Shown here one piece after another: positions 12,635 through 64,000 of a stretch of DNA of 64,000 nucleotides. The DNA comes from an uncultured Bacteriovoracaceae bacterium (GTDB lineage: Bacteria; Bdellovibrionota; UBA2428). The DNA lies in NCBI GenBank assembly GCA_964407615.1, contig CAYOWH010000001.1:85171-149170 (forward strand), given 5' to 3'. Under the pieces are notes generated by a model. It was not told the DNA's origin. It was given only the letters and a program-made list of their open reading frames with translations, and did not search any database. How positions within the stretch are numbered: position 1 is the first letter of the stretch; every line of letters starts with the position of its first letter. Made by a program: the position numbers and the translations under genes.

Positions 12635-13849
12635 TTGGCTGGTTTAAACTTAAATAAAGAAATTATCAATAGAGATTATTTTGAATATACTGGTAAAATG
12701 ACTTTTTCAGAAGTAAGTAATCATTTACGAGAATTAGGAGATAATACAGGGTTTATTTTAAACGACATATTATTTCCTATACCACCTATTTCTATTCAAA
12801 TTCAAAAAGATAATTTTAATTGGGGTTACAAAACACTAAGATCTAAGACTACAACGAAAATTGTATCTGGTAGAAGTAGTGTTGGTATTCAAATCAAATT
12901 ACTATTTAATAGAGAAATGATTTTAATGTTGCATCGTTTAATTATTCAAATAAGGAACAATCCTTTTGTATGGGTGAAAAATGATTACATTAAGAATTCT
13001 ATTTTAGAAATAGATCCTAATTTAGGTTTAGATCCATCCAATCCAACTAATCTTTTTTGTACTGTAGTTGGATTTAGAATAAGTTCTTATCAAGCCGGTG
13101 TATCTTCTTTTGAAGCAGAATTAGATTTAAAATATTTCAATTATTATCCTTATTCTCCAAATTTAATGTTTAGAAAAGAATTGGAATCTTTATTGATTCC
13201 AATTTCGGATATCAAATTCTCAAGTTTTGTGTTTCCTGTTTTTGATACTAGAAGACTTGCGCAAATAAACTACACTTTAACTAATCAAACTAACACTCAA
13301 GCTGCAACTACTGAAACAAATTCAACTTCTGATTCTACTAAAAAAGAATCAGAAACATACTTTACTTCGATGTATAGAAACTTAAAGAAATATAACTTTT
13401 CATTGAGTGTCAGAGAACCTTACTTTAGCAATGTATATGTTAGATACTATAATTACTTACAAATAAAATCTTTAACTGAGAACTTTGGAATAAATTGTGT
13501 TGATCGATCTATTTTTACAAAAGAAGAAATGTTACTTTTAGAATCAGGTTTAATAGGAGATAATTTTCAAAATTTAGTAATTGGAGTTCATTCAGCATAT
13601 TTACCAGAATACATTAAAATTAAATTAATTTTAAAGATGCTAGAAAAAGATTTAAATATGAAAATTTACTGGAATCAATATTTCTATTTAAACTTACCAG
13701 GAGAAGTATTAAAAAGATATCGACAAGAAATTTTGGATGGTACTGAAAAGATTAATGATGTTGAGCAAAGACAAAAGAAAATTCTTGAAAATCAAAAGAA
13801 AATAGCAGATGCTTTGATTAAAATTTCGAAAGAAGAAGGTGTAAAATGA
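12635..13849 (+). CDS. Hypothetical tail/baseplate-associated protein (404 aa), TTG start
   Basis: The ORF begins with TTG, 6 nt after a GGGAGA Shine-Dalgarno-like sequence. Its end overlaps the next start as ATGA. N-domain, T/S/N-rich linker (TNQTNTQAATTETNSTSDSTKK), then C-domain. It sits between the two megagenes. Confidence 0.6.
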   Translation: MAGLNLNKEIINRDYFEYTGKMTFSEVSNHLRELGDNTGFILNDILFPIPPISIQIQKDNFNWGYKTLRSKTTTKIVSGRSSVGIQIKLLFNREMILMLHRLIIQIRNNPFVWVKNDYIKNSILEIDPNLGLDPSNPTNLFCTVVGFRISSYQAGVSSFEAELDLKYFNYYPYSPNLMFRKELESLLIPISDIKFSSFVFPVFDTRRLAQINYTLTNQTNTQAATTETNSTSDSTKKESETYFTSMYRNLKKYNFSLSVREPYFSNVYVRYYNYLQIKSLTENFGINCVDRSIFTKEEMLLLESGLIGDNFQNLVIGVHSAYLPEYIKIKLILKMLEKDLNMKIYWNQYFYLNLPGEVLKRYRQEILDGTEKINDVEQRQKKILENQKKIADALIKISKEEGVK

Positions 13850-25595: not shown

Positions 25596-26837
25596 ATGCG
25601 AATACAAAATGTTGATGTTGCTAGATACTCTTCTAGTTTGAGAACAAGAATAATGGAGTCTCTAGGTGCGGAAAGTAGTTATACTAGTGATTCTCTAATA
25701 AATATTATATCAGAAGTTTTTAGTCAAGAATCTGCAAATTATGTAAATCAATTAAATACAGTTTTAGATTCAATGTCTGTTTTAAATGCTAAAGGTAGCT
25801 CACTTGATACACTTGCTTATTCCATGTATGGTTTAAGTAGATATCCTGCTAGAAAAGCAAATGTAAAGGCTAGCGATTATAATATTTATTTTACAGTGGC
25901 TAGAGGAAAAACTAGTTTTGGTGATATAAATGATGGAGCTTCTATCACTATTCCTGCGGGTACTATTTTATCTACAAACGGAAGTATAAATTCAACTGGA
26001 AGCATTAGATACGTTGTTTCTAGTAATGTAGTTTTAAGTTCGAATTCTAATGTAGGTTATGTATCTGCTATAGCAGTTGGTGCTGGTAAAAGCTTTAATT
26101 TAAACAAAGGTTTAAATTATCATGATTTTACAAATTATTATGATTTTGAAAATAACACGCTTTTAGTTTCAAATACTTACCCTATTTTAAATGGTTCTGA
26201 TGCAGAAACAGATGAGAATTTTAGATTTAGAATAATGAATCATTTAAATTCATTAAAATTTACAAATTATAATAATGTTTTATTTAGTAGTTTAAATATA
26301 CCAGGGATTATTAATGTCAAAATAATAAACTCTTATTTTGGAGTAGGTACTGCAGCTGTAGTTTGTTTTGGACAAGCAAAGCAATCGAATACTGAATTAG
26401 TTAAAAAAGTTCAAAATATATTAGATGCGAAAGATTCAAATAATTTTCGTTTTATAGCAATTGAACCTAGAAGACTAAATCTCGATATAAAAATTACATT
26501 AAATCTTTCTAGAATAGATTCTACTGATGAAATTAAAAATAGAATTGAAAATGCAGCTCAAGAAAATGTTCTTAACTTTTTTAATCAGAGAATTGGAGAA
26601 AACAATTATTTGCTTTCTGAATTTCACAATTCTTTGATTGATACTATTAATCGATTTTTAGTTAAACCAATATTACCTTCTAAAGATTATATACCCGTTA
26701 TCAACGCCTCAAAAGTATCTAACAACGATATTATAGAGCAATACTCTTTAATAAGAATAAGTGATGATATCTTTTTACAAGATGATGAAATGGTAGATGT
26801 CGCTAAAATAACTTTTGATTTTAAGTTAAAGGATTAA
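25596..26837 (+). CDS. Baseplate J-like protein (XkdT / gp6 / P2 gpJ family)
   Basis: 413 aa. N-terminal LINIISEVFSQESANYVNQLNTVLDSMSVLNAKGSSLDTLAYSMYGLSRYPARKANV fits the Baseplate_J signature (A.G..LD.LA...G..R..A..A). Synteny after the gp25-like gene supports the call. Confidence 0.6.
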   Translation: MRIQNVDVARYSSSLRTRIMESLGAESSYTSDSLINIISEVFSQESANYVNQLNTVLDSMSVLNAKGSSLDTLAYSMYGLSRYPARKANVKASDYNIYFTVARGKTSFGDINDGASITIPAGTILSTNGSINSTGSIRYVVSSNVVLSSNSNVGYVSAIAVGAGKSFNLNKGLNYHDFTNYYDFENNTLLVSNTYPILNGSDAETDENFRFRIMNHLNSLKFTNYNNVLFSSLNIPGIINVKIINSYFGVGTAAVVCFGQAKQSNTELVKKVQNILDAKDSNNFRFIAIEPRRLNLDIKITLNLSRIDSTDEIKNRIENAAQENVLNFFNQRIGENNYLLSEFHNSLIDTINRFLVKPILPSKDYIPVINASKVSNNDIIEQYSLIRISDDIFLQDDEMVDVAKITFDFKLKD

Positions 26838-45227: not shown

Positions 45228-47759
45228 ATGGCTTATATCTCACAATTAAATAATAAAATCTTCTCATACGCTTCTGGTAATATTAATATTGATAGTAAGA
45301 ACGCTTTGTCAGTAAATATTGCTAAAACAAAAAGCGATATTAGCTCTATTACTAATTATGTTAATGAAGTGCTTTATCCTTTGTTTTTAGGATTACCAAG
45401 CGGACCAATTTATATGGATCCTATACAATATGGTTTATCAGGAGCTTCTTTATTGAGTTATTCTATTGCTGCTGGGAATAATAGTAATCAAACAGGATTA
45501 TATTGGTCAACAGCTAACAATGGTAGACCTACTACAATAAAAGAATCTTTTGATTTTATTTTAAATAAAGTAACTGCATTGGAAACCGCTGCTGCAATAG
45601 ATCAAATAGAAGATACTAGTATTCAAGATCAGATTGATTTACTTTCAAAAAGAATCTATCAAATATTTTATGAAACTTATGGTAGTGAAAAATTAAATCA
45701 TCATTTAGCAACTACTGATGAAGATGCTTTAGTACCAACGTTTACTGCATCTTCATTATTGTATCAAGTATATAGTCAACTCATTACTGGTCAAAATTCT
45801 GGAAATTTATCAATATTAGATAACTCGTCTCATGTTGGATTTAATTTAAAAATTAACAAAGCTGCAATTGAATTAGAATTAAACGATTTATTAGATGTAA
45901 CAATTGATACGCCTTTAAATCATGAATCTTTAGTATTTAATGGTTCAGAATTTGTTAATAAAGTAATTTCTTTGGCTGATGATACTACTGGAAATTATAT
46001 TGAATCTATTACTGTAGCAAGTGAATTAGTTAAACAAATTACAAACGATGCAATTCATAATAAAACCATAAGCATTGGTTTAGCTGAATCTGGAGTTACT
46101 GCTGGTAGTTATACAAAAGTAGCTGTTGATAAATTTGGTAGAGTAACTGATTCGGTAGAAGCAACCACTTTACTTGATTATGGTATTACTGATGCAATTA
46201 ATAGTTCAGAAAAAGGTCAACCAGATGGGATTGTCCCTTTAAATTCTTCAGGATTAATAGACACCAGCTATCTTCCTTCTTATGTAGATGATGTTTTAGA
46301 ATATACTGATCTTGCAAGTTTTCCTGCAAGTGGATCTGTTGGTAAAATCTATGTAGATTTAGCTACTAACAAAATATATCGTTGGTCAGGCACTACATAT
46401 ATTGAAATATCTCCAGGTTCTCCTAATGCAGTAGTTGGAATAACTGCGATTACTCCTGTTGTTATCGGTGGTACTTCTACAAATCCTCAAATATCAGTAC
46501 AAGCTGCATATGCAAATAGTCCAAATTATTTAGTTTTAAGAAATGCAAGTGGTGATATTGTTTGCTCTAATATGACTTGTAATGAAGTAAATGGAAATGC
46601 AGCTACTGCTACTAAACTTAAATTTGCTAGAAATATTGCTTTAACTGGTGCTGTATCTGGTACTGTTGCTTTTGATGGTAGTCAGAATGTATCAATTACA
46701 ACTTCTGCTTCTGGGTTAGTAAGTACTGATGCTGTAGATCAAACTGTTTTAGGTTTAAAAACTTTTAGTAATGGTATAGAAACAGACTATCTTAAATTAG
46801 GTATCAGCCCAAATGAAACTGGTATTGAATCTAAAAATAGTAACTTGATTTTAAAATCAAGTGCAGGTTTAATCATTTTAATGAATGACACTCAAATTTC
46901 TGGTAATTCTACAGTTTATGGTGGTAGTTTTAATGTTGCAAACTCAGGTACTGGAATTACTAGAGGTTTATATTTAAATTCAGGAATGGCTTTAACTAAT
47001 CCTTCTTTAGATATCACTGCAATAGAAGTTAATAGAGGTACTTCTACTGCAAGTAAAATGATTTGGAATGAACAATTAGATCAATGGCAATTTACACACC
47101 CACTATATGCAAATTTAAGTGGAAATGCTGCTACTGCAACTAAGATTGCATCGCCAGTAAATATTCAATTAACTGGAGAAGCAAGTGGTACTGCATCTTT
47201 CGATGGTAGTCAAAATATTGAAATTAGTACTACAATTAAGAATAAATTAGTGTTTTCTCAAAGAGCTGAACATACTATTTATGTAGGTAGTAAAGATGCG
47301 GGAACGGATCACTTAACTGGAAATGATTCACCTTATAAAGAAGGTATTTTAGAAATTAATAATTTAGATCAAATTTCTTTGCAACCAACTTTACTTTGGA
47401 GAAATAATACTGGTTTTGATATTAAAATTACTTATATAGATTTAACTATGTGTGAAGGTGGTTCTAAAGGTGCTACAATAAATGATTATTCTTTCTTGTT
47501 AGTAAAGTGTAGCTCTAGTTTTACTCAAAATGACCAAGGATTAGGATCTGTTTGGGTTCCTTTATTAGGTGGTTCAACTATTCAATTTGACACTAGATTT
47601 GCTCCATTTCCAAAACATTTACCTTTAAATGTTGGAGTTTCAATTACTAATACTAGTGCTATTGTACCTTCTGGAGCATGGTTTGGTATAATTTGCGTTG
47701 ATCAACCAGAATATCCTGGTTCTGGTTTGATAGGGAATATAACTGCAGTTATAGTTTAA
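45228..47759 (+). CDS. Tail fibre protein (843 aa)
   Basis: Contains SGVTAGSYTKVAVDKFGRVTDS, KGQPDGIVPLNSSGLIDTSYLPSYV and LPASGSVGKIYVDLATNKIYRWSGTTYIEI. These are widely conserved tail-fibre motifs. It also has two NAATATK...FDGSQN repeats. Confidence 0.8.
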   Translation: MAYISQLNNKIFSYASGNINIDSKNALSVNIAKTKSDISSITNYVNEVLYPLFLGLPSGPIYMDPIQYGLSGASLLSYSIAAGNNSNQTGLYWSTANNGRPTTIKESFDFILNKVTALETAAAIDQIEDTSIQDQIDLLSKRIYQIFYETYGSEKLNHHLATTDEDALVPTFTASSLLYQVYSQLITGQNSGNLSILDNSSHVGFNLKINKAAIELELNDLLDVTIDTPLNHESLVFNGSEFVNKVISLADDTTGNYIESITVASELVKQITNDAIHNKTISIGLAESGVTAGSYTKVAVDKFGRVTDSVEATTLLDYGITDAINSSEKGQPDGIVPLNSSGLIDTSYLPSYVDDVLEYTDLASFPASGSVGKIYVDLATNKIYRWSGTTYIEISPGSPNAVVGITAITPVVIGGTSTNPQISVQAAYANSPNYLVLRNASGDIVCSNMTCNEVNGNAATATKLKFARNIALTGAVSGTVAFDGSQNVSITTSASGLVSTDAVDQTVLGLKTFSNGIETDYLKLGISPNETGIESKNSNLILKSSAGLIILMNDTQISGNSTVYGGSFNVANSGTGITRGLYLNSGMALTNPSLDITAIEVNRGTSTASKMIWNEQLDQWQFTHPLYANLSGNAATATKIASPVNIQLTGEASGTASFDGSQNIEISTTIKNKLVFSQRAEHTIYVGSKDAGTDHLTGNDSPYKEGILEINNLDQISLQPTLLWRNNTGFDIKITYIDLTMCEGGSKGATINDYSFLLVKCSSSFTQNDQGLGSVWVPLLGGSTIQFDTRFAPFPKHLPLNVGVSITNTSAIVPSGAWFGIICVDQPEYPGSGLIGNITAVIV
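46593..46706 (+). repeat. Tail-fibre repeat unit 1 (GNAATATKLKFARNIALTGAVSGTVAFDGSQNVSITTS)
   Basis: 38-aa unit, 24/38 identical by my count to the unit at 47121-47234. Matches the common phage fibre repeat (ATKL...G..SG...FDGS.N..I). Confidence 0.8.
47121..47234 (+). repeat. Tail-fibre repeat unit 2 (GNAATATKIASPVNIQLTGEASGTASFDGSQNIEISTT)
   Basis: Second copy of the 38-aa unit, 528 nt downstream of the first. Confidence 0.8.
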
Positions 47760-53078: not shown

Positions 53079-53371
53079 TTAAACATACTGTCTTTGGGAG
53101 TTTGCGATTTATTAGCAAATGCTTCTTCTACATTCTTGCTAATATAAATAGGCACCATTACAAACTCTTTAGCTTTAGCTTGTAGGCAAGACATGATTTC
53201 ATAACCTTGAGGTGCGTATGAAGCTCCTGTAGGTGTTTTAATAATAGTTCTTGCAACTAATGCTTTTTTAATTCTATCTACTGTATTTGCTACATAGTTA
53301 TCTCCAGATTCAAGATAATAAAATTTCTTTTCTGAATTAACATAAATGCCTAAAGATTTGTCGTTCATCAA
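53075..53371 (-). CDS. Hypothetical protein (98 aa)
   Basis: ORF with ATGA-type overlaps on both sides. Confidence 0.55.
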   Translation of the reverse strand: MMNDKSLGIYVNSEKKFYYLESGDNYVANTVDRIKKALVARTIIKTPTGASYAPQGYEIMSCLQAKAKEFVMVPIYISKNVEEAFANKSQTPKDSMFK

Positions 53372-55866
53372 TCCTCACTGTCTTCTGCTTCATAATCATC
53401 TGCTTCTACAAATAGAACTTTTTTACCATCGGATTCTACAATCCCTTGTTCTTTTAATTCTCTGTATCTTTCAGTTTGATCAGTAGCCATTTTAGGGTTT
53501 ACTGGTTTTAATGTTACACTTGTTGGATCAAGATCCAAGAACATCTTTTCTTTAAATGAAGATATCTTGTTTTTAGTAAAATTCAAGAGTAATCTTGGAC
53601 GCATATTACCATCAACATCATTCCAGAATATTTCTGCATGTTCTTTACGATCATGAATGTCATTGTATACGTGGAAGATTATATTTGGTCTATACATTAA
53701 TGCACGTGCATCAGCAAGATCATCATCTACTGGTAATCTAAACTTACTATAATCCATTGGCATATTCTTTCTATATTCTGCAGTTGCAATCATACAGCAT
53801 TTATATTTTACTGTTAGATTCTTTTGCATATTACTAATTTGAGTAATTCTTGCAGTTTGATCTAGATTTAAAAAATCCATATAATTCATAGTATTGTCGC
53901 AAACTAAAAGAATCTTTTTATTAGGGTATCTTTGTCTATAATATCTTAGATTCTTTTCTAGTACTGAGAGTGTAGCACCATCTTCACTGTCAATAATAAC
54001 AAGTCTTTCTTGTTCTATCAATTCTCTGAAACGTTGGTTAGTAGCTTCCCAAGCTTCTTTGTATTCATGAGATTTATCTTTTAAATTAATATTAGGTTGC
54101 ACCATCATACCAATAGTTAATGGCAATGGATTTACAGTACTCATTCTGTATAGATTAGTTTTGATACGTGGTTCGATCTGTTCATAAGAGTCATCTGTAC
54201 TATGAATAATTACCAATGCATTTTCATCACTATTAGCAATATCAGTACCAATCATCAAGCAAGTTGCAGTTTTACCACTATTAGCTCTACCACCAACATA
54301 CATCAAACAACCAGAAGCCCAATTCATACCACCAGCTAAACTAGTTTCAAAGAAATTAAAGTAATCCATTTTAAAAGAAGTAGCTTGTTCATCAGAAGTA
54401 GATTCTTCTCTTTGTTGTTGAATTGCATCAAATCTAGTTAGTTGATAGTTAATACCGATCGTATTATTACGATATTCTTTCTCGATTGCTTCAATCGCTA
54501 ATTCATGGTTAGCCATATGAGAACGAATACCATCTGGATCTTCTTCTACTTCTTTAGTATACTTTTCTGCAGCACCTTTTAATCTATCTAATTTCTCATT
54601 AAACTTATTATTTCTAATTGAATTTACATCTGTGTTGATAGATGTTTCACTAATCCCAGTAAACTTTGACAATGCATTAATTAATAATTCTCTTTTAATT
54701 GCTGTGTCTTCTGCTGCGATTACAGGAATCATCTTCATACAAATAGAATCTGGAGATTCTGTATCACTAAATGTTTTCATAAGCCAATCAAATGATGATA
54801 CTTTTTCTAAACTTAAATAAAGTTCTGCATCTTCTGTTGCTTTAAGAAATTCATCTGGATCTTTTGCTTGAGATCCCTTAGGTGGCATTACTACGTAACA
54901 AGAGATACCACTAGTAGCTTTTAGAATATTTTCTAGAATTCTTTGAGTAGCTGCATAACCTGCTTTATCCCAATCAAAGTTTAAGAATACCTTTTTAATA
55001 CCTAATGTTTTTAAATAGATAAGATGTGATTCAGTTAAAGCAGTACCGCAAACAGCAACTGCGTTAGTAATACCTAATCTGTACAATTGCATTAAGTCGC
55101 CTTGACCTTCTAAAATGTACAAACCATTCTTCTTTGCAGATTGTAATGCAACATCAATACCCATTAATACTTGAGACTTCTTATAAATATGAGTCTCTGG
55201 ATTATTTACATACTTAGGTTGATGATCATTTACTACTAAGTTTCTACATGCAAAACCAATAGTTCTTTTAACATGATCTTTGATTGCAAAAGTAATCTTA
55301 TCTAAACCAAAGAATGAATGAAATTTAGTTTTGATAAAGTTGCTTTGATTAATAAAGGCTGCTTCCCAGCCTTTCTTTACTAATTGAGCAATCAAATCAC
55401 TTTCTGAGATTTGACCAATCACACAAGATTGTTGAATCCAATTACGCTCTACCAGATAAGGAATATCTACATTCCTTTGATTAGAAAGAATGTCAGAAAT
55501 ATCTGCTGCTAATTTGTATAGGTTGATCTTTTCTTTTTCTAGTAAAGATAATTCACCTGGTGAATATGGAATCTTTAGATATTCACATAATGTAGGAATA
55601 GTTACATGCAACCATTCAGGGCCATTAAGTGGTAAGTTATCTAGTATATTTGCAGCTGCAAATATATCACCTGTAAAACCACATGAAAAACACTTTACAG
55701 TTTCATTTGCAGTCTTTGGATTAAAATGCATAGATGGATCATTATCATTATGAGCAAAGCATTTTAATTTATTAGAACCTGCATCGATTCCCAACTTCTT
55801 TACTAAGTATTCTTTTAAATTTGCACGAAGCAGAGTGACTGCTTCGTTTATATCAGTTACATACAT
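53368..55866 (-). CDS. Bifunctional DNA primase-helicase (DnaG zinc finger + TOPRIM + DnaB-like helicase), 832 aa
   Basis: CHC2 zinc finger CFAHNDNDPSMHF...VKCFSCGFTGDIF. TOPRIM LYILEGQGDLMQL...FLNFDWDKAGYAATQR. Walker A GGRANSGKTATCL and Walker B KILLVCDN in the C-terminal half. Confidence 0.85.
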   Translation of the reverse strand: MYVTDINEAVTLLRANLKEYLVKKLGIDAGSNKLKCFAHNDNDPSMHFNPKTANETVKCFSCGFTGDIFAAANILDNLPLNGPEWLHVTIPTLCEYLKIPYSPGELSLLEKEKINLYKLAADISDILSNQRNVDIPYLVERNWIQQSCVIGQISESDLIAQLVKKGWEAAFINQSNFIKTKFHSFFGLDKITFAIKDHVKRTIGFACRNLVVNDHQPKYVNNPETHIYKKSQVLMGIDVALQSAKKNGLYILEGQGDLMQLYRLGITNAVAVCGTALTESHLIYLKTLGIKKVFLNFDWDKAGYAATQRILENILKATSGISCYVVMPPKGSQAKDPDEFLKATEDAELYLSLEKVSSFDWLMKTFSDTESPDSICMKMIPVIAAEDTAIKRELLINALSKFTGISETSINTDVNSIRNNKFNEKLDRLKGAAEKYTKEVEEDPDGIRSHMANHELAIEAIEKEYRNNTIGINYQLTRFDAIQQQREESTSDEQATSFKMDYFNFFETSLAGGMNWASGCLMYVGGRANSGKTATCLMIGTDIANSDENALVIIHSTDDSYEQIEPRIKTNLYRMSTVNPLPLTIGMMVQPNINLKDKSHEYKEAWEATNQRFRELIEQERLVIIDSEDGATLSVLEKNLRYYRQRYPNKKILLVCDNTMNYMDFLNLDQTARITQISNMQKNLTVKYKCCMIATAEYRKNMPMDYSKFRLPVDDDLADARALMYRPNIIFHVYNDIHDRKEHAEIFWNDVDGNMRPRLLLNFTKNKISSFKEKMFLDLDPTSVTLKPVNPKMATDQTERYRELKEQGIVESDGKKVLFVEADDYEAEDSED

Positions 55867-55886
55867 ATTCGAGTCCCTTACATGTT

Positions 55887-55905
55887 ATTATACACTGTGT
55901 GTATA
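55887..55905 (-). promoter_or_regulatory. Candidate promoter -10 (TATAAT, 55887-55892) overlapped by an inverted repeat TATACAC-tgt-GTGTATA (55889-55905), upstream of the primase-helicase gene
   Basis: The minus strand reads ...tatacacacagtgTATAATaacatgtAAGGGActcgaatATG. It has a perfect -10 hexamer, an SD-like AAGGGA, and a 7-bp-arm palindrome overlapping the -10, which is an operator-like arrangement. Confidence 0.35.
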
Positions 55906-56005
55906 GATTTGTGTTTTAAAATACAAATAAGTTTTTTATATTTCTTTTTTCTTTAAATATATCAAGTACTTACATTGTTGTCTTTTTAGTGTTGAGCTAA
56001 AGATA

Positions 56006-56066
56006 GTAAATGTCATTTTTACAAAGAAAAACAATGTAAATATTTACACGAAAAACTGTGTAAACA
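56006..56066. promoter_or_regulatory. Cluster of TGTAAA/TTTACA hexamers including a perfect 14-bp palindrome TGTAAATATTTACA (56035-56048)
   Basis: Hexamers at 56006-11 (GTAAAT), 56018-23, 56035-40, 56043-48 and 56059-64. ACAATGTAA (56031-39) recurs inverted at 55970-78. An AT-rich tract at 55918-55965 lies between the cluster and the primase-helicase start. Confidence 0.35.
56043..56064 (-). terminator. Possible intrinsic terminator/attenuator hairpin after the guaC-like gene
   Basis: The minus strand reads TTTACAC-agtttttc-GTGTAAA followed by tatttacattgtttttc. The stem is 7 bp and AT-rich, so it is weak. It shares the TTTACA arm with the 14-bp palindrome, so alternative pairings are possible. 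Confidence 0.25.
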
Positions 56067-56080
56067 ATTACGCTATTTTT

Positions 56081-57145
56081 CTAGCTTAAATTGACATTAG
56101 ATTCTTGCCAACCATTTGTTGTGATTTTTCTAAATTCTACATTCTTTGGATTAATATCAGATAGGTCTTGTAAACCAAGATAACTAATTGCTGATTGAAT
56201 TCCATCATTAAACTTTTCTAGTAATTCTTTATAAGTATATTTTGGATTAAAGTATTGAGAGCTTTCACCTTCAACATTTTTTGCGGTACCATATTGAGCT
56301 AATTGAAAATCTTTACTAGCTTGACCTCTATATCTTTTTACCTTATCTCTTGATTTTAATTTGATAGCAGTAAACAAATCAGGTAAATCCCAACCAGCAG
56401 ATTCTTCTGTATAAGATAGTAGTTTGCCTAGCATTATATGTGTTGCACCTGCAGCAAAGTATTTAACTGCATCACCACTAGAAGTAATACCACCATCAGC
56501 AATGATCATGATTTCATCTAATAGGCTAGCTTTATTCACTGCATTATAAATATCAAAAACAGCAGATAGTTGAGGTACACCAACTCCTGTTACTAATCTT
56601 GTAGTGCAAGCAGCGCCAGGACCAATACCTACTCTTAAGTAATTGCAACCAGCGTCAATACATCTAAGTGCAGCAGATGATGTTGCAATACTTCCAGACA
56701 TAATATCTTTTACATATGAAAGTTTTCTCCATTTAGAATAAATTTCATGCATGTATTCTGTATCTCCATGAGCTACATCTACACAGATATTAATTTTTTC
56801 ATTAGGATCAATATGTGCTCGCAATTCTTCTAGAAATTTCTTTTCATATTCAAAATCTGAACTTACAGCCCACCAAAAGTTATTTTTATAGCTAGAAAAT
56901 CCAAAGAAAGCTTTTACTCTTTCTGATTCATCTATAAACCTACTTAACACTGGTAGTTGATTATTATCGATTAGCTCTCTAGTCAAGTTATAACCTGTAA
57001 CAGTATCCATTGGTGCGGAGAACATATAAGGTAAAAGAGATGCTTCTGATCTTGATTTTAAAATTCCACAATCAGGAACAAGCAATACATCTTTTACTGA
57101 AAGATTTAATTCTTTAAAAGTTTGTAAGTTTCTTTCGAAAATCAT
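56081..57145 (-). CDS. guaC: GMP reductase-like enzyme (IMPDH/GuaC family, no CBS insert), 354 aa
   Basis: VKDVLLVPDCGILKSRSEASL...FSAPMDTVTG; ICVDVAHGDTEY; catalytic-loop RVGIGPGAACTTRLVTGVGVPQLSAV; IIADGGITSSGDAVKYFAAGATHIMLG. Collinear with E. coli GuaC (about 347 aa). Confidence 0.75.
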   Translation of the reverse strand: MIFERNLQTFKELNLSVKDVLLVPDCGILKSRSEASLLPYMFSAPMDTVTGYNLTRELIDNNQLPVLSRFIDESERVKAFFGFSSYKNNFWWAVSSDFEYEKKFLEELRAHIDPNEKINICVDVAHGDTEYMHEIYSKWRKLSYVKDIMSGSIATSSAALRCIDAGCNYLRVGIGPGAACTTRLVTGVGVPQLSAVFDIYNAVNKASLLDEIMIIADGGITSSGDAVKYFAAGATHIMLGKLLSYTEESAGWDLPDLFTAIKLKSRDKVKRYRGQASKDFQLAQYGTAKNVEGESSQYFNPKYTYKELLEKFNDGIQSAISYLGLQDLSDINPKNVEFRKITTNGWQESNVNLS

Positions 57146-57423
57146 TAATTTACTCCAAAGTAAGTTAGATTTTGTTTTAGTAAGGTTTTCTTTTTTTGAT
57201 TGTTTTTTGATTCATATAACCAAAGCGTCATTGCAGAGACTTTTTTAAACTCTAAAGATATTTGTAAAAAGATATCTAAAGCTTCATTTTTAGTATCATA
57301 TGGACCATAAGTTGTTACTACTGCATTTCTTTTCAAATCTACATAGTAACTAAATTTCTCTAGGTTTCTTTTCGTTGTCATAACAGATATTTTTGTATTG
57401 GCAAAGATCACATTGCCAATCAC
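57145..57423 (-). CDS. Hypothetical small protein (92 aa from GTG 57423, or 78 aa from ATG 57381)
   Basis: The ORF overlaps the 3' end of the upstream nuclease gene. The start is uncertain because no clear RBS precedes either candidate. Confidence 0.45.
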   Translation of the reverse strand: MIGNVIFANTKISVMTTKRNLEKFSYYVDLKRNAVVTTYGPYDTKNEALDIFLQISLEFKKVSAMTLWLYESKNNQKKKTLLKQNLTYFGVN

Positions 57424-58375
57424 CCTTTTCTACTTGTTTATTTAATTTTTCTTTACCTTCTGCAATTTGAGCAAGTCGCTTTTCATATTGTGCAGTTTCG
57501 GTTTTGTTAAGTTCATTTCTTTCATAAAGCAAATGAATCTTTTCATCAGAATAAGCTAATTCATAATCTCTACTTGGAATAGTACCTGAATCAACACAAT
57601 CCTTAATATATTTGTATTGAGCACAAATACTTTGCATTGTAATTCCAGAGTTAACTTTTTCTGTAGTTACTGGATTATTACCTTGATAAAAAATATAATC
57701 TAGGTCATCTTCTGCTTTCTCTACAGTAATTTTGTATTCTGCATATCTTCCAGTATCTCTAGATCCATAAATCAACAATGCTTCTGCAAAATCATCATGC
57801 ACATTACCATACCACCATTGATACAATCCAATTTGCATTAAGTGAGATTCTCTAGGTTTTCCAAGTTCACCTTTTTTGTGATCACTTGAAGTTCCCATTA
57901 CACTATTTGCATTAAAACCATATACTGATTTAACTTCAATAATATGATATTTATGTGTTTCTGGATTAATTACAACCAAGTCTATTTTACCTGAAACATT
58001 AAGTTTAGGAATATACACTGCAACTTGTGTTGCAATAAACACTCCTGCTTCCTTAGCTAAATCAACGCAGTATTGCTCATAAATTTCACCTTGTTTCCAA
58101 ATCCATTTTACATAAGTATCTGGAGGGATAGAAGTTTTATGTAGAGCTTTTACTAAATCTAAATCTTTTGAATAAGTTTCATCATCAAATGAATATAAAT
58201 CCATAAGATATCTAAAATAGTTTGCTCTTCTGCATTTTCCAACTACTTCTTGTTCTCCATGAGAATTAGTAATAATTGAAGTTGCTTCTGAAGGCCATTG
58301 TGTAGGGTGCTTTTGCTCGTCTAAAATTCGTCTATCTAAATAATTTGTAATATGGTTAATGAAGGACCAAGCCAT
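57350..58375 (-). CDS. Cas4/RecB-family PD-(D/E)XK exonuclease with Fe-S cysteine staple (341 aa)
   Basis: N-terminal Cys (VVGKCRRANYF). Catalytic GKIDLVVINPETHKYHIIEVKS (D...E.K). QxxxY in HLMQIGLYQWW. C-terminal WQCDLCQYKNIC is the canonical CX2CX5C. Confidence 0.65.
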   Translation of the reverse strand: MAWSFINHITNYLDRRILDEQKHPTQWPSEATSIITNSHGEQEVVGKCRRANYFRYLMDLYSFDDETYSKDLDLVKALHKTSIPPDTYVKWIWKQGEIYEQYCVDLAKEAGVFIATQVAVYIPKLNVSGKIDLVVINPETHKYHIIEVKSVYGFNANSVMGTSSDHKKGELGKPRESHLMQIGLYQWWYGNVHDDFAEALLIYGSRDTGRYAEYKITVEKAEDDLDYIFYQGNNPVTTEKVNSGITMQSICAQYKYIKDCVDSGTIPSRDYELAYSDEKIHLLYERNELNKTETAQYEKRLAQIAEGKEKLNKQVEKGDWQCDLCQYKNICYDNEKKPREI

Positions 58376-58686: not shown

Positions 58687-59790
58687 TTAGAGAGCACCTT
58701 TCTTAACTGGTAAATGTGTACCTAGGTACACTGGAGTGGAATAGTTAAAGTCTGTGTTGCCATTAGAGTCATGGTAAATAATAGCATAACCATTAACAGC
58801 GTTTTTAAATTTAAGATCTGCTTTGAATTGATAAGGTAATCTATGAGCCATAGCACCTTGTTCAATCAAAAGTTTGTTACCTACAATCCCTTTATATTGT
58901 TTATGTGTATGTCCAACAACAATAGAGTCAAATTCATCATTCTTTAGTCTTGCAGAAAAATGATCTAAGAGTTTGACTACTGTTGCTCCAGGATAAGAAT
59001 TGGAGAAACCATCTGGATGACAGAAAATAGTTTTCCCTATTCTTACATACCAAGAATCAAATCTTTCATAAACAACATTTGAGAAATCATGTTTCTTTAC
59101 AAGATTTCCAAATTTATCTAGCTCTTCTCCTGAAGCAATTCTTGCTAAAAGATCAGGTCTAAAAACTTGAGAAGCTTCTTGTTCAAAACCATTAGATGCT
59201 AAAGCTCTAGAGGTTCTAGCATCATGATTTCCAGAAACAATTACTACCTTAGTAAAATTGCATGATAAGAAATATACAAGATCAAAAGCAGCCATATATT
59301 CTTTAATAGCAGCTACTCTTTTAGATTTTGCATATGTACTAAAAATATATCCATCAAGGATATCACCATTAAGAACGACAATATCTGCGTCTGAATGAAC
59401 TTGACAGGCTCTTTTAATTTCTTCATGCATAAAGAATGGTATATGTAAATCACTAAATGTCAAGATCTTTCTTGTTTGATGATCTGTAATACCTATCTTT
59501 ATTTGCTCTGATTCTAAAGCATATTCTTCAATACATTCGGCTATATGATCCCAACGTTCTTGAAAGGGATCATCTTTAGGTTGTACAAGTACAGGATATT
59601 CAGAGATTCTTCCTCTATAAATTCTATTTCTTACTGCATCAGGACTTCTAATTGAAATAAACCCTGGAACTTTTTTAGAATAGTATTCATTAATAATTTG
59701 TGAAATTTCTAAAGGATTTTTTATATGTTGATATTTAAAAAGGATTTGATCCTCTTGTGGAGTCCATAGATAAGTCTTCTTGTCTGTCAT
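58687..59790 (-). CDS. Myb/SANT-like HTH fused to calcineurin-like metallophosphoesterase (367 aa from ATG 59790)
   Basis: N-terminal YLWTPQEDQILFKY...IRSPDAVRNRIYR fits the pattern W..eED..L...R....R. MPE motifs: FSDLHIP (DxH), LNGDILDG (GDxxD), VSGNHDAR (GNHD) and VVGHTHKQ (GHxH). The track ORF starts at TTG 59826. Confidence 0.65.
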   Translation of the reverse strand: MTDKKTYLWTPQEDQILFKYQHIKNPLEISQIINEYYSKKVPGFISIRSPDAVRNRIYRGRISEYPVLVQPKDDPFQERWDHIAECIEEYALESEQIKIGITDHQTRKILTFSDLHIPFFMHEEIKRACQVHSDADIVVLNGDILDGYIFSTYAKSKRVAAIKEYMAAFDLVYFLSCNFTKVVIVSGNHDARTSRALASNGFEQEASQVFRPDLLARIASGEELDKFGNLVKKHDFSNVVYERFDSWYVRIGKTIFCHPDGFSNSYPGATVVKLLDHFSARLKNDEFDSIVVGHTHKQYKGIVGNKLLIEQGAMAHRLPYQFKADLKFKNAVNGYAIIYHDSNGNTDFNYSTPVYLGTHLPVKKGAL

Positions 59791-61033
59791 CTTTATTCCA
59801 TTGGTGTTTGTAAAACTTATTTGCAATAAGTTTTATATCTGGTTCAGTTGATTCTACTTTAACTTCAGCGATTATAATATCACCTTCTTGAATTTGTAAA
59901 GCAGCATATTCTTCATATTTATGTGGAAAGACTACAAGTTCTGCAGCACGAGTTGAATCATCAATATCTAGAATTGCCATTTTCTTGCCAGCTTTAGTAT
60001 TGATGATTCTTTGTGAAAGAATTACTCCTGCTACTTTATATTTAAAATTCTCTTCTACAGATTCTAAATCTTCTCTATCTATGTTCGTCATATTGATTGG
60101 ATGTCCACCAATATAACAACCAATATAAGATGCTTGATCTAGGATTTCCTTTAGATTTATTGGTACGGTTTTAACTCTATTAAAAGTTGGTAAATCTGGT
60201 AATTCTTTTTCTTTTAAATCTACAGCTTTTTTTAATTCCATTTCTTCTAATGGAAGTAAATCTTCTTCTAATTGTGTAATTTTATTTTGAAGTTGAATAT
60301 CATCTGGAGATTTAGTCAACTTTTTCTTTGCTTTTATTAACTCATTTCTTAAGAAATTTCTTTTTTCAATTAAAGGTAGAATCTCTTCATTCCTTTTATT
60401 TCTCTCTATAATATCTAATTTTCTTTGATTAAATTCTTCTACATCTTTTAAGTAAGAATAAATAGAATCTACATTTTCTAATAATTCTGAGCGTACATAA
60501 CCTAATTTATCAAATGCACCTGCTTTAACTAAACCTTGAAAAACTTTAGTATTAACCTTTTGAGTATTTACTCTATTGATAAAATCCCAAACATCTTTGA
60601 ATGGTGTATTCCCGCGTGCAGTAATAATATATTTTGCTGCAGTACCACCAACATCTCTAATAGCGTTTAATCCAAAATAAATTTCATTATCATGGATAGT
60701 AAACTCAAAACTACTGCGATTAATATCAGGTGGGAATATATCAACCCCAAAATGTTTTGCTTCATTAATATACTCTGGAGCCTTAATAGCCCAAGTTTTT
60801 GGTTGTAAAGTTTTAGATCTAGTGCTCATTAATGCAGTAAAGAATTCTACTGGATAATTAGCTTTTAAATAAGCAGTTACATATGTAAGTACAGAATAAG
60901 AAACTGAATGTGCTTTGTTAAAACAATTTGAAACGACTACACCATTTTCTAATTGAAAATCATGATGTGGCGAATCAACACTAATATCATATACAGGTTG
61001 TTGACCTATAAAAGTTTTTGATTTTATTTGCAT
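59735..61033 (-). CDS. dnaE: DNA polymerase III alpha (DnaE) C-terminal half preceded by a split-intein C fragment (432 aa)
   Basis: After residue 36 the sequence [34 protein letters not shown] is the conserved Pol III alpha fingers segment. It is followed by PPDINRS, the HhH motif [17 protein letters not shown] and an OB fold ([37 protein letters not shown]). No PHP or palm region is present. Confidence 0.85.
   Translation of the reverse strand: [432 protein letters not shown]
60926..61033 (-). mobile_element. Split intein C-terminal fragment (IntC, 36 aa: [36 protein letters not shown]), followed by the +1 Cys
   Basis: Intein block F (VYDISV..HHDF) and block G (NGVVVSN), with the terminal Asn and a Cys+1 extein residue. 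It is nearly collinear with cyanobacterial DnaE IntC ([42 protein letters not shown]). Confidence 0.8.
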
Positions 61034-61036
61034 AAT

Positions 61037-61528
61037 TTATTTATATAAAATTGTAATTGTTGAATTTGGAATATAACTTGTTGCACTATTGTATGGTATA
61101 TTGATAGGAAGTGTTCCAGATACATTAACAAGTCCCAATTTGACTGATCTAATGGATGCTGATGAAAAAAGCATCAAGAAACAATCGACTGATGCAAACC
61201 AAACGCCTGAAGTACTTCCAGCCCGCATGATACAAAGTCCATAGGCTTGATGGTCTACTAAAGCATTTGAGGCATCCAGAAATGATGGTTGGGGTGCATT
61301 ATTTGTAGATCCTGTATTTACTGCTTGCACAATCAAATTTGATTTAACAAAAAATTCCATATTTGCTGGGAAATTGATGAAGTTGTTCGTGATACTAATT
61401 TGACCCCCAGTATCTACTAAAATGTTCCCAAGATTTATAGCGGTTGTATTAGATGCGATATTTAATGTCTCAAGGATTTCAATCTCACAAATGTGACAAT
61501 CAATGTATGGGATAGGCTGAAAACTCAT
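61037..61528 (-). CDS. Small beta-rich knob-like protein (163 aa from ATG 61528)
   Basis: The track start is TTG 61543. ATG 61528 forms an ATGA overlap with the upstream stop. S/T/N/A/G/V-rich with few charges. Its stop lies 3 nt before the dnaE-C ATG. Confidence 0.55.
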   Translation of the reverse strand: MSFQPIPYIDCHICEIEILETLNIASNTTAINLGNILVDTGGQISITNNFINFPANMEFFVKSNLIVQAVNTGSTNNAPQPSFLDASNALVDHQAYGLCIMRAGSTSGVWFASVDCFLMLFSSASIRSVKLGLVNVSGTLPINIPYNSATSYIPNSTITILYK

Positions 61529-61944
61529 GATATTGCTCCACAAGAAATGACAAAAACATTTAGATTATCAGCGGTCACAACATCCCCCGTATCAAGGATT
61601 GATGAAGTTATTTGTGTCGGCTTATCTTGATATGTAAGAGCAACAATAGGTTGCATAGTGGAGGATGATTTATGAGCAAGAGATGCACCAATTCGAGTGT
61701 TTGAACTATGACCTGAAGGGGATAAACCAATACGAGCAAGCACATAGTTTGTATCACTATCGTTTGTTGCTCTAGCCATGATTTGAATCACAGATTGACT
61801 AGCAATATGTGTTTGACTAGCATTATGAAAGCATGGCATATTAATACTTCGTTGAAATGGATTACTAACAATTGCACCTAGAGTACAAGAACTTGTACTA
61901 TTATCTAGAAAATAGACGGTTTGAGGTGTTGGCAAATATGACAT
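61525..61944 (-). CDS. Small beta-rich protein (139 aa)
   Basis: The start shares 1 nt with the upstream stop (TAATG). Same composition class as its neighbours. N-terminus MSYLPTP resembles MSYMIKH and MSFQPIP of the adjacent ORFs. Confidence 0.55.
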   Translation of the reverse strand: MSYLPTPQTVYFLDNSTSSCTLGAIVSNPFQRSINMPCFHNASQTHIASQSVIQIMARATNDSDTNYVLARIGLSPSGHSSNTRIGASLAHKSSSTMQPIVALTYQDKPTQITSSILDTGDVVTADNLNVFVISCGAIS

Positions 61945-62429
61945 TATGCAATCTCCAAAATAAAGGCACGAGAGGCACCACTATTGACGGTATCAACATA
62001 GAGAGCGCCCGTATCTCTTGAGTAGAGAAAAGAAATATAATCCCCCGCTGATGCTGATACGACTGCTGTTGCTACATTGATCGGTGTAATCCAAGCACCA
62101 CTACCAACCGCCCCGCTTGTTGTAACGGCTTGAACGGTTGGTTGTGCTGAGACGGTCACACCATTCTTTTGGATAAAAACTTGTGCACCTCTATTTTCGG
62201 TACCATTTGAAATACCTACCTTATAATAGATGATGTATGTTTTCCCAGCAACTAAGGTGATTTGATTATTAGCAAGTGTTAATCCCATATCATTGCTTTG
62301 AACAAGAGTATCTAGTGAAAGTGTTAGATTTCGGGGTACACCTGTTGAAATCGTGTAATTGGTAGTGAAAAAAGCGGTTGCCATCTTAAAAGGTTTTGCA
62401 TTTATAGAATGTTTAATCATGTAACTCAT
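61944..62429 (-). CDS. C1q/TNF-like (BclA C-terminal-domain-like) jelly-roll protein (161 aa)
   Basis: TAFFTTNYTISTGVPRNLTLSLDTLVQSNDMGLTLANNQITLVAGKTYIIYYKVGIS...QVFIQKNGVTVSAQ...ISFLYS...SRAFILEIA follows the BclA-CTD/C1q pattern (..aG.Y.I.y.v.....v.l..NG..v....a.l.I..ia). Confidence 0.45.
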   Translation of the reverse strand: MSYMIKHSINAKPFKMATAFFTTNYTISTGVPRNLTLSLDTLVQSNDMGLTLANNQITLVAGKTYIIYYKVGISNGTENRGAQVFIQKNGVTVSAQPTVQAVTTSGAVGSGAWITPINVATAVVSASAGDYISFLYSRDTGALYVDTVNSGASRAFILEIA

Positions 62430-62440
62430 AATAAAAAATC

Positions 62441-62923
62441 CTAACAGATAATCCAGTTAGCATCATTAGAACGAACTGTTAAATTTCCCCATTGTGTAGG
62501 AATAGAGATGCTTGATAACCCGCTAATCGTTTGAGCGGATACCGTCGCAACAGTTACGGCCCCCGTATTAACCCTAGTAATATGATATGTTAAGCCATTG
62601 TTTCCTACGGCGGTTGGTAGTGTAAAGGTTAAAGCGCTTGTACTGTCCATTGTATAATGTTCTTCATATACAGAAGATGCGACGGGATCAGGGATCGCAA
62701 AGTTACTAGTCTTATTTGTGATTGTAATTCTGGCACCACCACCACTTGAAATAGTACTTGGTTTCCATAACGAAGTTGAACTTTCCCAAACAAGAGCTTG
62801 TCCATTTGTAGGTGCAATACTTGAAGTATTTACATCTAAAAGTGCATCAATTGATGTTGCATTGATTCTAGTAGTAATTGTAGAATTCAAATCACCAATT
62901 TGTTTAGATTTTATTTGTGCCAT
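62441..62923 (-). CDS. Small fibre-tip-like protein (160 aa)
   Basis: N-terminal IDALLDVNTSSIAPTNGQALVWESSTSLWKPS is a fibre-shaft-type motif (L.DV....p..GQ.L.W....W.p). C-terminal ALTFTLPTAVGNNGLTYHITRVNTGAVTVAT...WGNLTVRSNDANWII is typical of receptor-binding tips. AGGA RBS. Confidence 0.45.
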   Translation of the reverse strand: MAQIKSKQIGDLNSTITTRINATSIDALLDVNTSSIAPTNGQALVWESSTSLWKPSTISSGGGARITITNKTSNFAIPDPVASSVYEEHYTMDSTSALTFTLPTAVGNNGLTYHITRVNTGAVTVATVSAQTISGLSSISIPTQWGNLTVRSNDANWIIC

Positions 62924-63304
62924 TTAAACAATCCTATAATAAATGATAGCTCTAGAAGTTAAACTTGTTAAATTAGTATAACTTCTTGTTAAGGAACTAG
63001 TTGTAGTAATTAAACCAATATCTAATATACCTCTAATGAACTTACCATCTGCTTTTACATAAGTATTATATGTATCATAAAAAGTTCTAGATGAATTATT
63101 ATTATAAGTTGTAGTTATAATATTTGAAGCCGCAGTATTATCTAAATAAGTATTAATATTTTGTTGCAAATATTTATAGATGCTACTGGATGCTGTTTCG
63201 TAATTATTTGATATTGTAATATCTGAAGGATTATTTGTAGTTTGAGTATAATCAGAATTAATACTTACTGGAGAAAGATAAGAAGATACATTAATCCAAG
63301 TCAT
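62924..63304 (-). CDS. Small N/T/S/Y-rich protein (126 aa)
   Basis: TAAATG junctions on both sides. The MTWINVSS N-terminus resembles MTFINLQS of the next ORF. Confidence 0.5.
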   Translation of the reverse strand: MTWINVSSYLSPVSINSDYTQTTNNPSDITISNNYETASSSIYKYLQQNINTYLDNTAASNIITTTYNNNSSRTFYDTYNTYVKADGKFIRGILDIGLITTTSSLTRSYTNLTSLTSRAIIYYRIV

Positions 63305-63712
63305 TTAAATACCTCCTAATTGCCAAACAATTACAAAACAAGAATTGCCTACATTTGCTGTTACAGTATTTCCTGTAATGATCGCAAGAGAAGAATTTGA
63401 TGCTCCTTGCAAATCAAAAGTTGCACAAGCATAACCTTCATCAACATTAATACTTTTAGTAATAGAAGCAGTTCCACAAGTAATATTAGTTATATTCATA
63501 AATGGATCATAATAATATATTTCTACAAAATAACTAAAACCCGGAGGTAAACTTATTATATTGCTTAGAGGAATTGATCCATTTGTAACTGTTGTAGCAT
63601 TAGTAATATTTAAATGCTTTCTTTGAAAAAGTATTGTACTAGTTTGCATAATAAAAGTAGCATATTTGGGAACTATAGTTAGAGAACCACTTTGTAAGTT
63701 AATAAATGTCAT
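63305..63712 (-). CDS. Small beta-rich knob-like protein (135 aa)
   Basis: GSIPLSNIISLPPGFSYFVEIYYYD...EGYACATFDLQGASNSSLAIITG...CFVIVWQLGGI shows a C1q/TNF-like strand pattern. Chained junctions to its neighbours. Confidence 0.45.
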   Translation of the reverse strand: MTFINLQSGSLTIVPKYATFIMQTSTILFQRKHLNITNATTVTNGSIPLSNIISLPPGFSYFVEIYYYDPFMNITNITCGTASITKSINVDEGYACATFDLQGASNSSLAIITGNTVTANVGNSCFVIVWQLGGI

Positions 63713-63713
63713 T

Positions 63714-64000
63714 TTACACCTTTTTGATTCTTTTTACAGTCATAGACACACTATTAATAGTGTGCACAGGATATGTTGCAGTATTAGAAGTCAAAGCTAT
63801 TCTTGATACAAAAGAAAAATTAGCTCCAATTGGAGTTACCAATGCTCCTCCTGTAGAGCTTCCCCCAAGAAAAAATATGCACTTTGTTTTTTCTGGATTA
63901 CTTAAATCTAAAGTATAATCTTTTATTCCTTGCTGAGAATAATAATCAAAACCAATAACAGGATCACTTGAATTAACTGTTGATTGATATTGATATGCAG
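63714..64000 (-). CDS. 3' part of a further small beta-rich ORF running off the window end (not in the ORF track)
   Basis: My translation of the minus strand from 63998: AYQYQSTVNSSDPVIGFDYYSQQGIKDYTLDLSNPEKTKCIFFLGGSSTGGALVTPIGANFSFVSRIALTSNTATYPVHTINSVSMTVKRIKKV, then TAA (63716-63714), 1 nt before the next ATG. Same strand and spacing style as the rest of the array. Confidence 0.5.
   Translation of the reverse strand, partial: AYQYQSTVNSSDPVIGFDYYSQQGIKDYTLDLSNPEKTKCIFFLGGSSTGGALVTPIGANFSFVSRIALTSNTATYPVHTINSVSMTVKRIKKV

Follow-up and report, generated by a model that had tools for sequence, protein, structure and literature searches.

Introduction

Point a is the commonest intein insertion site of dnaE, the gene for the alpha subunit of DNA polymerase III (Pol III); it is widespread among cyanobacteria, and all inteins known there are split (Novikova et al., 2016, PMC4760082). 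The two halves of the cyanobacterial gene lie in separate loci, and the split has been assumed to be irreversible (Dassa 2009, PMC2677866). Here we consider an open reading frame (ORF) in a 64,000-nucleotide stretch of contig CAYOWH010000001.1 (hereafter, the window), a segment of a low-GC (~29%) tailed phage, which opens with a C-terminal intein half (IntC) like those of Synechocystis PCC6803 (Ssp) and Nostoc punctiforme (Npu) and continues as the C-terminal part of Pol III alpha (the C-extein). From the sequence comparisons set out below, we put the probability that this ORF is half of a functional trans-splicing DnaE intein at roughly 0.85.

A split DnaE in a phage is not unprecedented; three phage-like cases, DnaE-1, DnaE-2 and DnaE-3 of the Global Ocean Sampling (GOS) data, were reported by Dassa 2009 (PMC2677866). 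In those loci, too, a phage-like dnaE is broken by a split intein, the halves lie close together on one strand, and the gene set, with its replication and nucleotide metabolism functions (gp41-like helicase, IMPDH, RNR), is like the present one. They differ in their insertion points and in having a single free-standing homing endonuclease gene between the halves, and the similarity of their inteins to those of cyanobacteria is just ~40% (same source). In the present case the split falls at the cyanobacterial site, the gap is filled by 3-15 genes of structural or lysis type, and the islands examined gave no HNH, GIY-YIG or Vsr-type Pfam or PHROG match, unlike a 'fractured gene' in the sense of that study. 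Nor is the trick itself new among phage polymerases: the replicative PolB of Pseudomonas phage MIJ3 (PMC6892783) and, reportedly, PolB1 of Aes123 (PMC11923092) are likewise encoded in two split-intein genes, but both belong to family B, the former with Ser1 and an HNH endonuclease gene between the halves, the latter with a cysteine-less intein. The replicative polymerase of Nanoarchaeum equitans is also divided between two split-intein genes; it is an archaeal family B enzyme interrupted at an unrelated site (via Dassa 2009, PMC2677866). Across the full-text literature searched, of which coverage is incomplete, we came across no account of a phage DnaE with its split at the cyanobacterial site, of a gene island between the intein halves, or of this three-gene DnaE.

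The C-terminal half of DnaE

The ORF has the coordinates given in the preliminary description, with the strand corrected to minus. Its parts are as follows.

59735-61033, minus strand: dnaE C-half, IntC plus Pol III alpha C-extein, 432 residues (ORF list, Pfam, PDB matches)
60926-61033, minus strand: IntC, residues 1-36, with block F PVYDISV..HHDF, block G VVVSN and terminal Asn36 (sequence, phmmer)
60923-60925, minus strand: codon TGT of Cys+1, the first C-extein residue, aligned with residue 755 of E. coli alpha, the Gly in GFNKSH
59735-60925, minus strand: C-extein, 396 residues and the stop codon; end of fingers, HhH beta-binding region and OB fold (Pfam, PDB)
60482-60748, minus strand: HHH_6 (PF14579), residues 96-184 (Pfam, E 5.8e-28)
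59813-60037, minus strand: OB fold (PF01336), residues 333-407 (Pfam, E 8e-9)
61034-61039, minus strand: TAA of the preceding ORF (61039-61037) and the 3-nucleotide spacer ATT before the ATG, with no Shine-Dalgarno motif

The start codon (ATG, 61033-61031) stands at the exact N-terminus of IntC, as it does in cyanobacterial dnaE-c genes, and the intein half ends with the AAT of Asn36 at 60928-60926. With ~35-36 residues, blocks F and G, a terminal Asn and a nucleophilic +1 residue, it has the features expected of an IntC. Residues 2-36 match the C-intein chains of Npu DnaE in the PDB (4lx3_B and 4qfq_B, E 1.4e-4; 5ol7, E 1.8e-6; phmmer); 15 of 35 residues are identical to Npu when counted from the phmmer alignment, or 44% by global alignment, which gives 56% identity to the best cyanobacterial IntC. 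The remainder, residues 37-432, aligns with the part of Pol III alpha that starts at residue 755 in E. coli and at 812 in Taq (E 8e-37). Sequence, PDB and Pfam matches thus bear out the earlier description of a DnaE-type C-half with a 36-residue IntC, ending in Asn followed by Cys+1, and its claim that the insertion site is the cyanobacterial one is confirmed by the position of Cys+1 at E. coli 755 and Taq 812 and by the alignment of KFAEY with GFADY, described below. The best NCBIfam match of the C-half is NF005616, a 449-position DnaE model that we read as the cyanobacterial split C-half; it aligns from residue 2 with 221.6 bits against an equivalog cut-off of 646.

No exact copy of the 432-residue protein is on record. 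A second polymerase piece was not found anywhere in the 64 kb by tblastn, for which an N-half sequence, a pair of PHP pieces and a phage DnaE of full length served as queries, other matches having E > 0.9, and the six small ORFs that extend over the ~2.7 kb upstream within the window have no similarity to polymerases, in agreement with the earlier remark that they are unrelated. That remark had been accompanied by one on translation, which does not hold for all relatives: the 3-nucleotide spacing between stop and ATG with no Shine-Dalgarno motif is common to the window and to its relatives L001 and L003, and is not conserved in L006 and L008, where an AAGGA motif precedes the C-half, in L008 together with a terminator-like hairpin. 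A T4-type late promoter directly 5' of the ATG (TATAAATA, 61045-61038) was considered and dropped, since its motif, found 13 times against 20.5 expected, is not enriched; scans for sigma-70-like promoters and terminators likewise gave counts at or below shuffle expectation. The C-terminal NPF tail was rejected as a clamp-binding or SSB-like motif, being kept in the nearest subclade only.

The partner carrying the N-intein

The closest relative of the window is L001, a 113-kb JGI and IMG/VR contig whose C-half is 94% identical to that of the window. Window positions 64000 to 49738 are collinear with L001 7045 to 21300 in one 14.3-kb high-scoring segment pair of 87% nucleotide identity. On the same strand of L001, 8.0 kb upstream of its C-half, lies a gene for a 535-residue protein (L001:370-1977) with Pfam palm and fingers domains and an N-terminal intein half (IntN) at its end, which reads ...EKLWEELVGFADY / CLSGDTKIKTNLG...SITCTDDHKILT...FGKE (here and below, the slash marks an extein-intein junction); the junction is ELVGFADY/CLSGDTKIKT and block B is TCTDDHKILT. 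The IntN, the last 96 residues, passes TIGR01445 (intein_Nterm) with 39.9 bits against a cut-off of 24.5. Its best PDB matches are cyanobacterial DnaE inteins (7qil; 4lx3_A of Npu; 1zde of Ssp), and the native Ssp N-extein KFAEY in 1zde aligns with GFADY of the L001 partner. For both halves the PDB ranking places DnaE inteins first (E 1e-6 to 1e-3), with gp41-1, NrdJ-1, DnaB and RecA inteins at E > 0.1. Against NCBIfam NF007079 the N-half reaches 294.7 bits, the equivalog cut-off being 1525.

Because of the collinearity of the two genomes, the partner is expected ~5 kb outside the window, at ~69.07-70.68 kb when the window's numbering is continued, and we infer that it is probably present in the window's own genome. 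The order PHP piece, mid piece with IntN, island, IntC with C piece, metallophosphatase is the same in L006, L008, L011 and L133, and L001 has the same arrangement without the PHP piece in the stretch fetched. The preliminary description had proposed that an IntN-bearing partner should be sought elsewhere; it is indeed lacking from the window and is found in L001 and in every longer relative examined, as a palm-thumb-fingers piece with IntN, while the PHP domain, which had been thought to belong to the same piece as the palm, is separate. The profile alignment proposed at the same time finds the L001 IntN above its family threshold and the window IntC short of E <= 0.01 to TIGR01443 (intein_Cterm).

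Conservation of the two halves and intein-free homologues

The C-half was compared in its 120 best homologue clusters (379-449 residues, 51-94% identical to the window protein), all 120 of which begin with a 35-46-residue IntC with a terminal Asn, followed by Cys+1; for a start of this kind such constancy is far above chance. The block-F Asp motif is present in 117 of the 120. On the other side, 119 N-half clusters match FA[DEN]Y/C, two of them unsplit genes, and all 116 that parsed have this junction, Cys1, an IntN of 92-117 residues and the T..H of block B, the three that the block-B pattern missed reading TPDHKF, TSDHKF and TKDHKF. The clusters come from JGI, ENA, NCBI, Logan and Tara assemblies. 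Median identity to L001 is 31% for IntN versus 62% for the N-extein.

Two homologues, P0235 (811 residues) and P0239 (807 residues), are contiguous and intein-free, and their junction GFADYCFNKAHS, that is, GFADY-CFNKAHS with the Cys kept at +1, equals the predicted ligated sequence. In L007, the genome of P0235, the contiguous dnaE is directly followed by the metallophosphatase, PD-(D/E)XK nuclease, IMPDH-like and primase-helicase genes in the order seen in the window, which locates the intein and the gene block of the split genomes exactly inside dnaE. We joined the N-exteins of 117 split and 2 unsplit genes, together with 9 outgroup sequences, into a neighbour-joining tree (40 bootstraps); it nests both intein-free genes inside the split clade in 40/40 bootstraps, and they are not each other's nearest neighbours. 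The simplest reading would be secondary loss of intein and island, i.e. re-fusion, with the reservation that a distance method was used and that recombination could mislead it.

A separate PHP gene

The PHP domain is absent from the 535-residue mid piece and from the intein-free genes of 807-811 residues. It is encoded, with the start of the palm, by a separate gene of 419-474 residues, one to three small genes upstream of the mid piece or of the contiguous dnaE.

L006:7597-8856, PHP gene
L007:8028-9452, PHP gene
L008:7645-8973, PHP gene
L011:7884-9173, PHP gene
L133:3100-4407, PHP gene

In the window's phage the PHP gene would be expected ~8 kb beyond the window end. Matched to the canonical DnaE profile NF004226, the pieces extend in turn over positions 4-402, 400-748 and 748 onward, and across the genes the domain set of Pol III alpha is found in full: the end of the fingers, HhH and OB in the window, PHP with palm start and palm-fingers in the other two genes of the relatives. 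The PHP piece has no intein motifs and ends ...GPGRGSAAGSLVAWSLKITEVDP..FSRFLNEGRG..., and a divergent copy of its SLVAY...RFLN segment recurs in the mid piece (NSILLY..TD..F...R.N...PDIDID), so that the two pieces overlap by ~35 homologous residues. The overlap resembles the outcome of a partial duplication. We considered a second IntC at the N-terminus of the mid piece (...ENPHN/SILLY) and rejected it, since the PHP piece has no IntN and runs through its own SLVAY...RFLN copy. The PHP piece presumably joins the others non-covalently.

Two side observations concern the neighbourhood of this gene. In L006 recA (5199-7227) is interrupted by a free-standing 208-residue ORF resembling an endonuclease, which leaves two recA ORFs (...GVMYGN* and MGQKPETTSGGNA...); intein motifs are absent, and L007, L008, L011 and L133 have an uninterrupted recA. 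In the window's subclade a speD-like S-adenosylmethionine decarboxylase gene (PF02675) lies between the PHP and mid dnaE pieces (L006:8869-9231, L133:4423-4785); possibly a host-metabolism gene, it may offer a weak clue to the host.

Proposed splicing and its alternatives

We propose that Pol III alpha of this phage would be made from three same-strand genes: one for PHP and the palm start, one for the palm-thumb-fingers part up to GFADY with an IntN of ~96 residues, and one for IntC with the CFNK C piece. Following the class-1 intein chemistry of the Npu and Ssp DnaE inteins, from which we take the steps, IntN and IntC would associate into a HINT fold, Cys1 would undergo an N-S acyl shift, the N-extein would pass to Cys+1 by trans-thioesterification, cyclisation of Asn36 would release the intein, and an S-N shift would yield the peptide bond ...GFADY-CFNKAHS..., with the junction peptide LWEELVGFADYCFNK. 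The predicted product is a PHP-less alpha core of ~835 residues, the same architecture that related phages encode in a single gene of 807-811 residues.

Several points weigh against this proposal. That the two halves splice in this phage is what we infer from motifs, and the partner gene lies outside the window and is known from relatives alone. The window IntC does not reach the TIGR01443 level given above, which its relative P0061 does, and its penultimate residue is Ser rather than His, although the cyanobacterial DnaE inteins are likewise non-His there. In the window's subclade IntN evolves fast: between L001 and L133 it is 59% identical where the N-exteins are 99% identical (the IntC of L133 is a single residue away from that of the window), and the ratio of nonsynonymous to synonymous substitution rates (dN/dS) is 0.43-0.69 for IntN versus 0.02-0.11 for the extein. 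Judged by these ratios, selection on IntN is purifying, relaxed but not neutral. Association of the Npu halves relies on opposite charges between them. Both intein halves in the window's subclade have a net charge of about -2, and with like charges their association could be weaker than in Npu.

The relaxed constraint and rapid divergence of IntN are what one would expect if ligation had been lost and the intein halves now served as a non-covalent docking module within a three-chain polymerase. The same phages tolerate breaks that involve no intein, between PHP and mid piece and in recA of L006, and for such breaks Aeromonas phage Aeh1 offers an analogue, its NrdA, split by the homing endonuclease gene mobE, reportedly assembling non-covalently (PMC3045599); having no intein, it is no analogue for the IntN/IntC junction. 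We nevertheless consider such docking improbable, because the residues needed for chemistry only, namely Cys1, the Thr and His of block B, the terminal Asn and Cys+1, are kept in all clusters in spite of the low median identity of IntN, and the intein-free relatives encode the exact ligated sequence. Still less probable, in our estimate, is that the C-half acts by itself as an HhH/OB factor binding DNA or the clamp, with IntC as a relic or used for C-terminal cleavage only. Some relatives do give it start or expression signals of its own, such as the hairpin and AAGGA of L008, but the protein begins inside the fingers domain at the conserved active-site motif CFNKAHS, an IntN-bearing piece is always present too in the loci examined, at the intein junction the pieces abut on the DnaE profile and do not overlap, and the closest intein-free homologues are fused. 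As to an assembly artefact or frameshift, which the preliminary description had raised, or a pseudogene, masking a contiguous dnaE, the one point in favour is that the window is metagenome-like with no exact copy on record. The same ends recur in the 120 C-half and 116 N-half clusters from several assembly sources, 3-9 kb of intact co-directional coding genes separate the halves, and the ATG coincides with the first residue of IntC, a feature shared with cyanobacterial dnaE-c; more than 100 independent clusters and the intervening genes effectively exclude an artefact, to which we assign the slightest probability of all. Trans-splicing remains the reading that we prefer.

Relation to the cyanobacterial split intein

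The phage intein shares with the cyanobacterial one the insertion point, FA[DE]Y/CFNK at E. coli residue 755, the split position, with an IntN of ~100 and an IntC of 35-38 residues, and the catalytic set including the non-His penultimate residue (ASN or VSN); cyanobacterial dnaE-c genes read ..ASN/CFNKSH, and the phage site is equivalent. For IntN, identity between the clade and Npu reaches 47% (E 1e-27, BLASTP); for IntC, identity between the clade and cyanobacteria reaches 71%. The differences lie in the host, here a tailed phage, in the C-extein, ~30% identical to 106 cyanobacterial C-exteins, in the NF005616 and NF007079 equivalog cut-offs (cyanobacterial DnaE-C and DnaE-N), of which the phage halves fall far short, and in the arrangement, the phage halves being syntenic on one strand, 3-9 kb apart around a variable island, with the PHP domain as a third gene.

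When one genome per GTDB species was searched with the pattern [ND]F...NG....NCFN..H, at least 120 loci were found, nearly all in named cyanobacteria, Nostoc punctiforme, Crocosphaera and UCYN-A among them; the few with other or uninformative bin names have cyanobacterial-type sequences. An exhaustive HMMER search of 1.84 billion representatives gave as the nearest relatives beyond the split clade intein-free, PHP-less proteins of 790-850 residues (240-305 bits), whose junction, where parsed, is FADY, FANY or FASY, then A or G, then FNKSH. The scores of cyanobacterial dnaE-c in that search, 155-174 bits despite its IntC match, were no higher than those of ordinary full-length bacterial DnaE, 160-175 bits. 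Capture of the phage dnaE from a cyanobacterium was rejected because of the low extein similarity. The intein, then, but not the polymerase, is allelic with its cyanobacterial counterpart, which indicates that the intein allele moved laterally, in one direction or the other.

Two further observations concern this site. In Laspinema palackyanum D2a (L109, NZ_JAMXFF010000011.1) the frame is open for 514 residues upstream of ..ASN/CFN, through an IntN-like ...MLAINEIFEQGLEF..., as if point a were occupied in this cyanobacterium by an intein that is contiguous and unsplit. Other phage-like dnaE C-halves (P0249, P0255, P0263, P0291, P0245) have a different IntC with ..KN/SHS or ..GN/SHS; they are split four residues downstream (FNK/SHS) with Ser+1, and P0245 has a site-a IntC, then CFNK, then a complete mini-intein at the FNK/SHS site.

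The gene island between the intein halves

The window contains the 3' end of the island, and the gap varies in size and content among the relatives.

61037-63712, minus strand: six small ORFs of 168, 139, 161, 160, 126 and 135 residues, collinear with L001 7333-9997
63714-64000, minus strand: 3' part of another island ORF, truncated at the window end; its homologue is the 225-residue ORF L001:6654-7331 (window 64000 corresponds to L001 7045)
L001 and L006 (and the window by collinearity): gap of ~8 kb with 14-15 genes
L133: gap of 8.9 kb, including an extra 687-residue gene
L008 (Tara): gap of 7.7 kb with four genes, among them those for 1022- and 1213-residue proteins
L011: gap of 3.1 kb with three genes

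The L001 island encodes a 523-residue tail-fibre or decoration-like protein and an M15 endolysin. In the window Pfam gave no match for the four ORFs nearest dnaE-C (61037-62923), and PHROG gave only a weak tail-connector match, for the ORF at 62441-62923. The three ORFs nearest dnaE-C (61037-62429, minus strand) are 63-67% identical to their L001 counterparts, with flanking ORFs at 91-98%, and match neither a Pfam nor a PHROG family; their products could be receptor-binding or accessory proteins that evolve fast. Between L001 and L133 nucleotide identity is 92-100% over the first ~990 nucleotides of the N-half gene, 64% across IntN, and mostly 64-71% in the island (81% over the endolysin region); upstream of the C-half there is no match, and inside it identity is 84% again.

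The window and its phage

The source of the window is an uncultured low-GC marine tailed phage. Its relatives are marine metagenome contigs of 113-181 kb (Tara, JGI, ENA, Logan), several of them IMG/VR viral contigs. No near-identical phage was found by megablast among 50,697 phage genomes, and in tblastn searches with the C-half, the primase-helicase and the contiguous homologue, protein identity to cultured phages was below 40% among the matches listed. There are no tRNA genes in the window, and no host-marker domains among its remaining ORFs. The genes of the minus-strand block are those for a ClpP-like head-maturation protease, a DnaG-DnaB primase-helicase, an IMPDH/GMP-reductase-like protein, a PD-(D/E)XK nuclease, a metallophosphatase and dnaE-C.

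1-47.8 kb, plus strand: block with two giant ORFs, a baseplate-wedge protein and a tail-fibre-like protein
58687-59826, minus strand: calcineurin-like metallophosphatase, directly downstream of dnaE-C and overlapping its 3' end (Pfam)
53368-58375, minus strand: rest of the replication block, contiguous genes, none with an intein (Pfam), in the same order in L001, L007 and L011
57350-58375, minus strand: PD-(D/E)XK nuclease (Pfam)
56081-57145, minus strand: IMPDH/GMP-reductase-like, contiguous and intein-free (Pfam)
53368-55866, minus strand: DnaG-DnaB primase-helicase, contiguous and intein-free (Pfam)

The IMPDH-like and primase-helicase families bear split inteins among the GOS 'fractured genes' (Dassa 2009, PMC2677866). 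The overlap between the dnaE-C 3' end and the metallophosphatase start (59735-59826) amounts to 92 nucleotides with the listed TTG start, or ~56 nucleotides with the first ATG; the corresponding overlap in L001 is 59 nucleotides. In the structural block the giant ORFs, of 3221 and 3477 residues, occupy 2967-12632 and 13846-24279 (plus strand), and the baseplate-wedge gene (25596-26837) and the tail-fibre-like gene (45228-47759), also on the plus strand, come after both.

Implications

The locus places the best-studied natural split intein, that of Npu and Ssp at point a, outside the cyanobacteria, in a large and diverse phage clade, and provides more than 100 natural Npu-like IntN/IntC pairs that could be mined for fast or mutually orthogonal splicing tools. 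As a replicase, a Pol III alpha encoded in three genes, one of them for a PHP subunit of its own, has an unusual architecture. The syntenic halves, the island between them and the nested intein-free genes together give a picture of the in-place splitting, and perhaps re-fusion, of an essential gene. That the intein is closer to its cyanobacterial counterpart than the exteins are points, as far as sequence similarity can tell, to an intein allele that was passed between the dnaE genes of phages and of cyanobacteria, and such a transfer bears on the old question of the origin of the cyanobacterial split.

Let us assume, as a tentative history to which we give well under even odds, that the split is ancestral in the marine phage clade, that the gap became a recombination-prone island for cargo such as tail-fibre, lysis and hypervariable genes, that the split was reversed at least twice by precise loss of intein and island, and that the allele was exchanged with cyanobacteria independently of the polymerase. 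Should this scenario be true, the classic split DnaE intein of cyanobacteria would have phages as its vector and possibly as its source, and phages would show an in-situ intermediate in the splitting of an essential gene.

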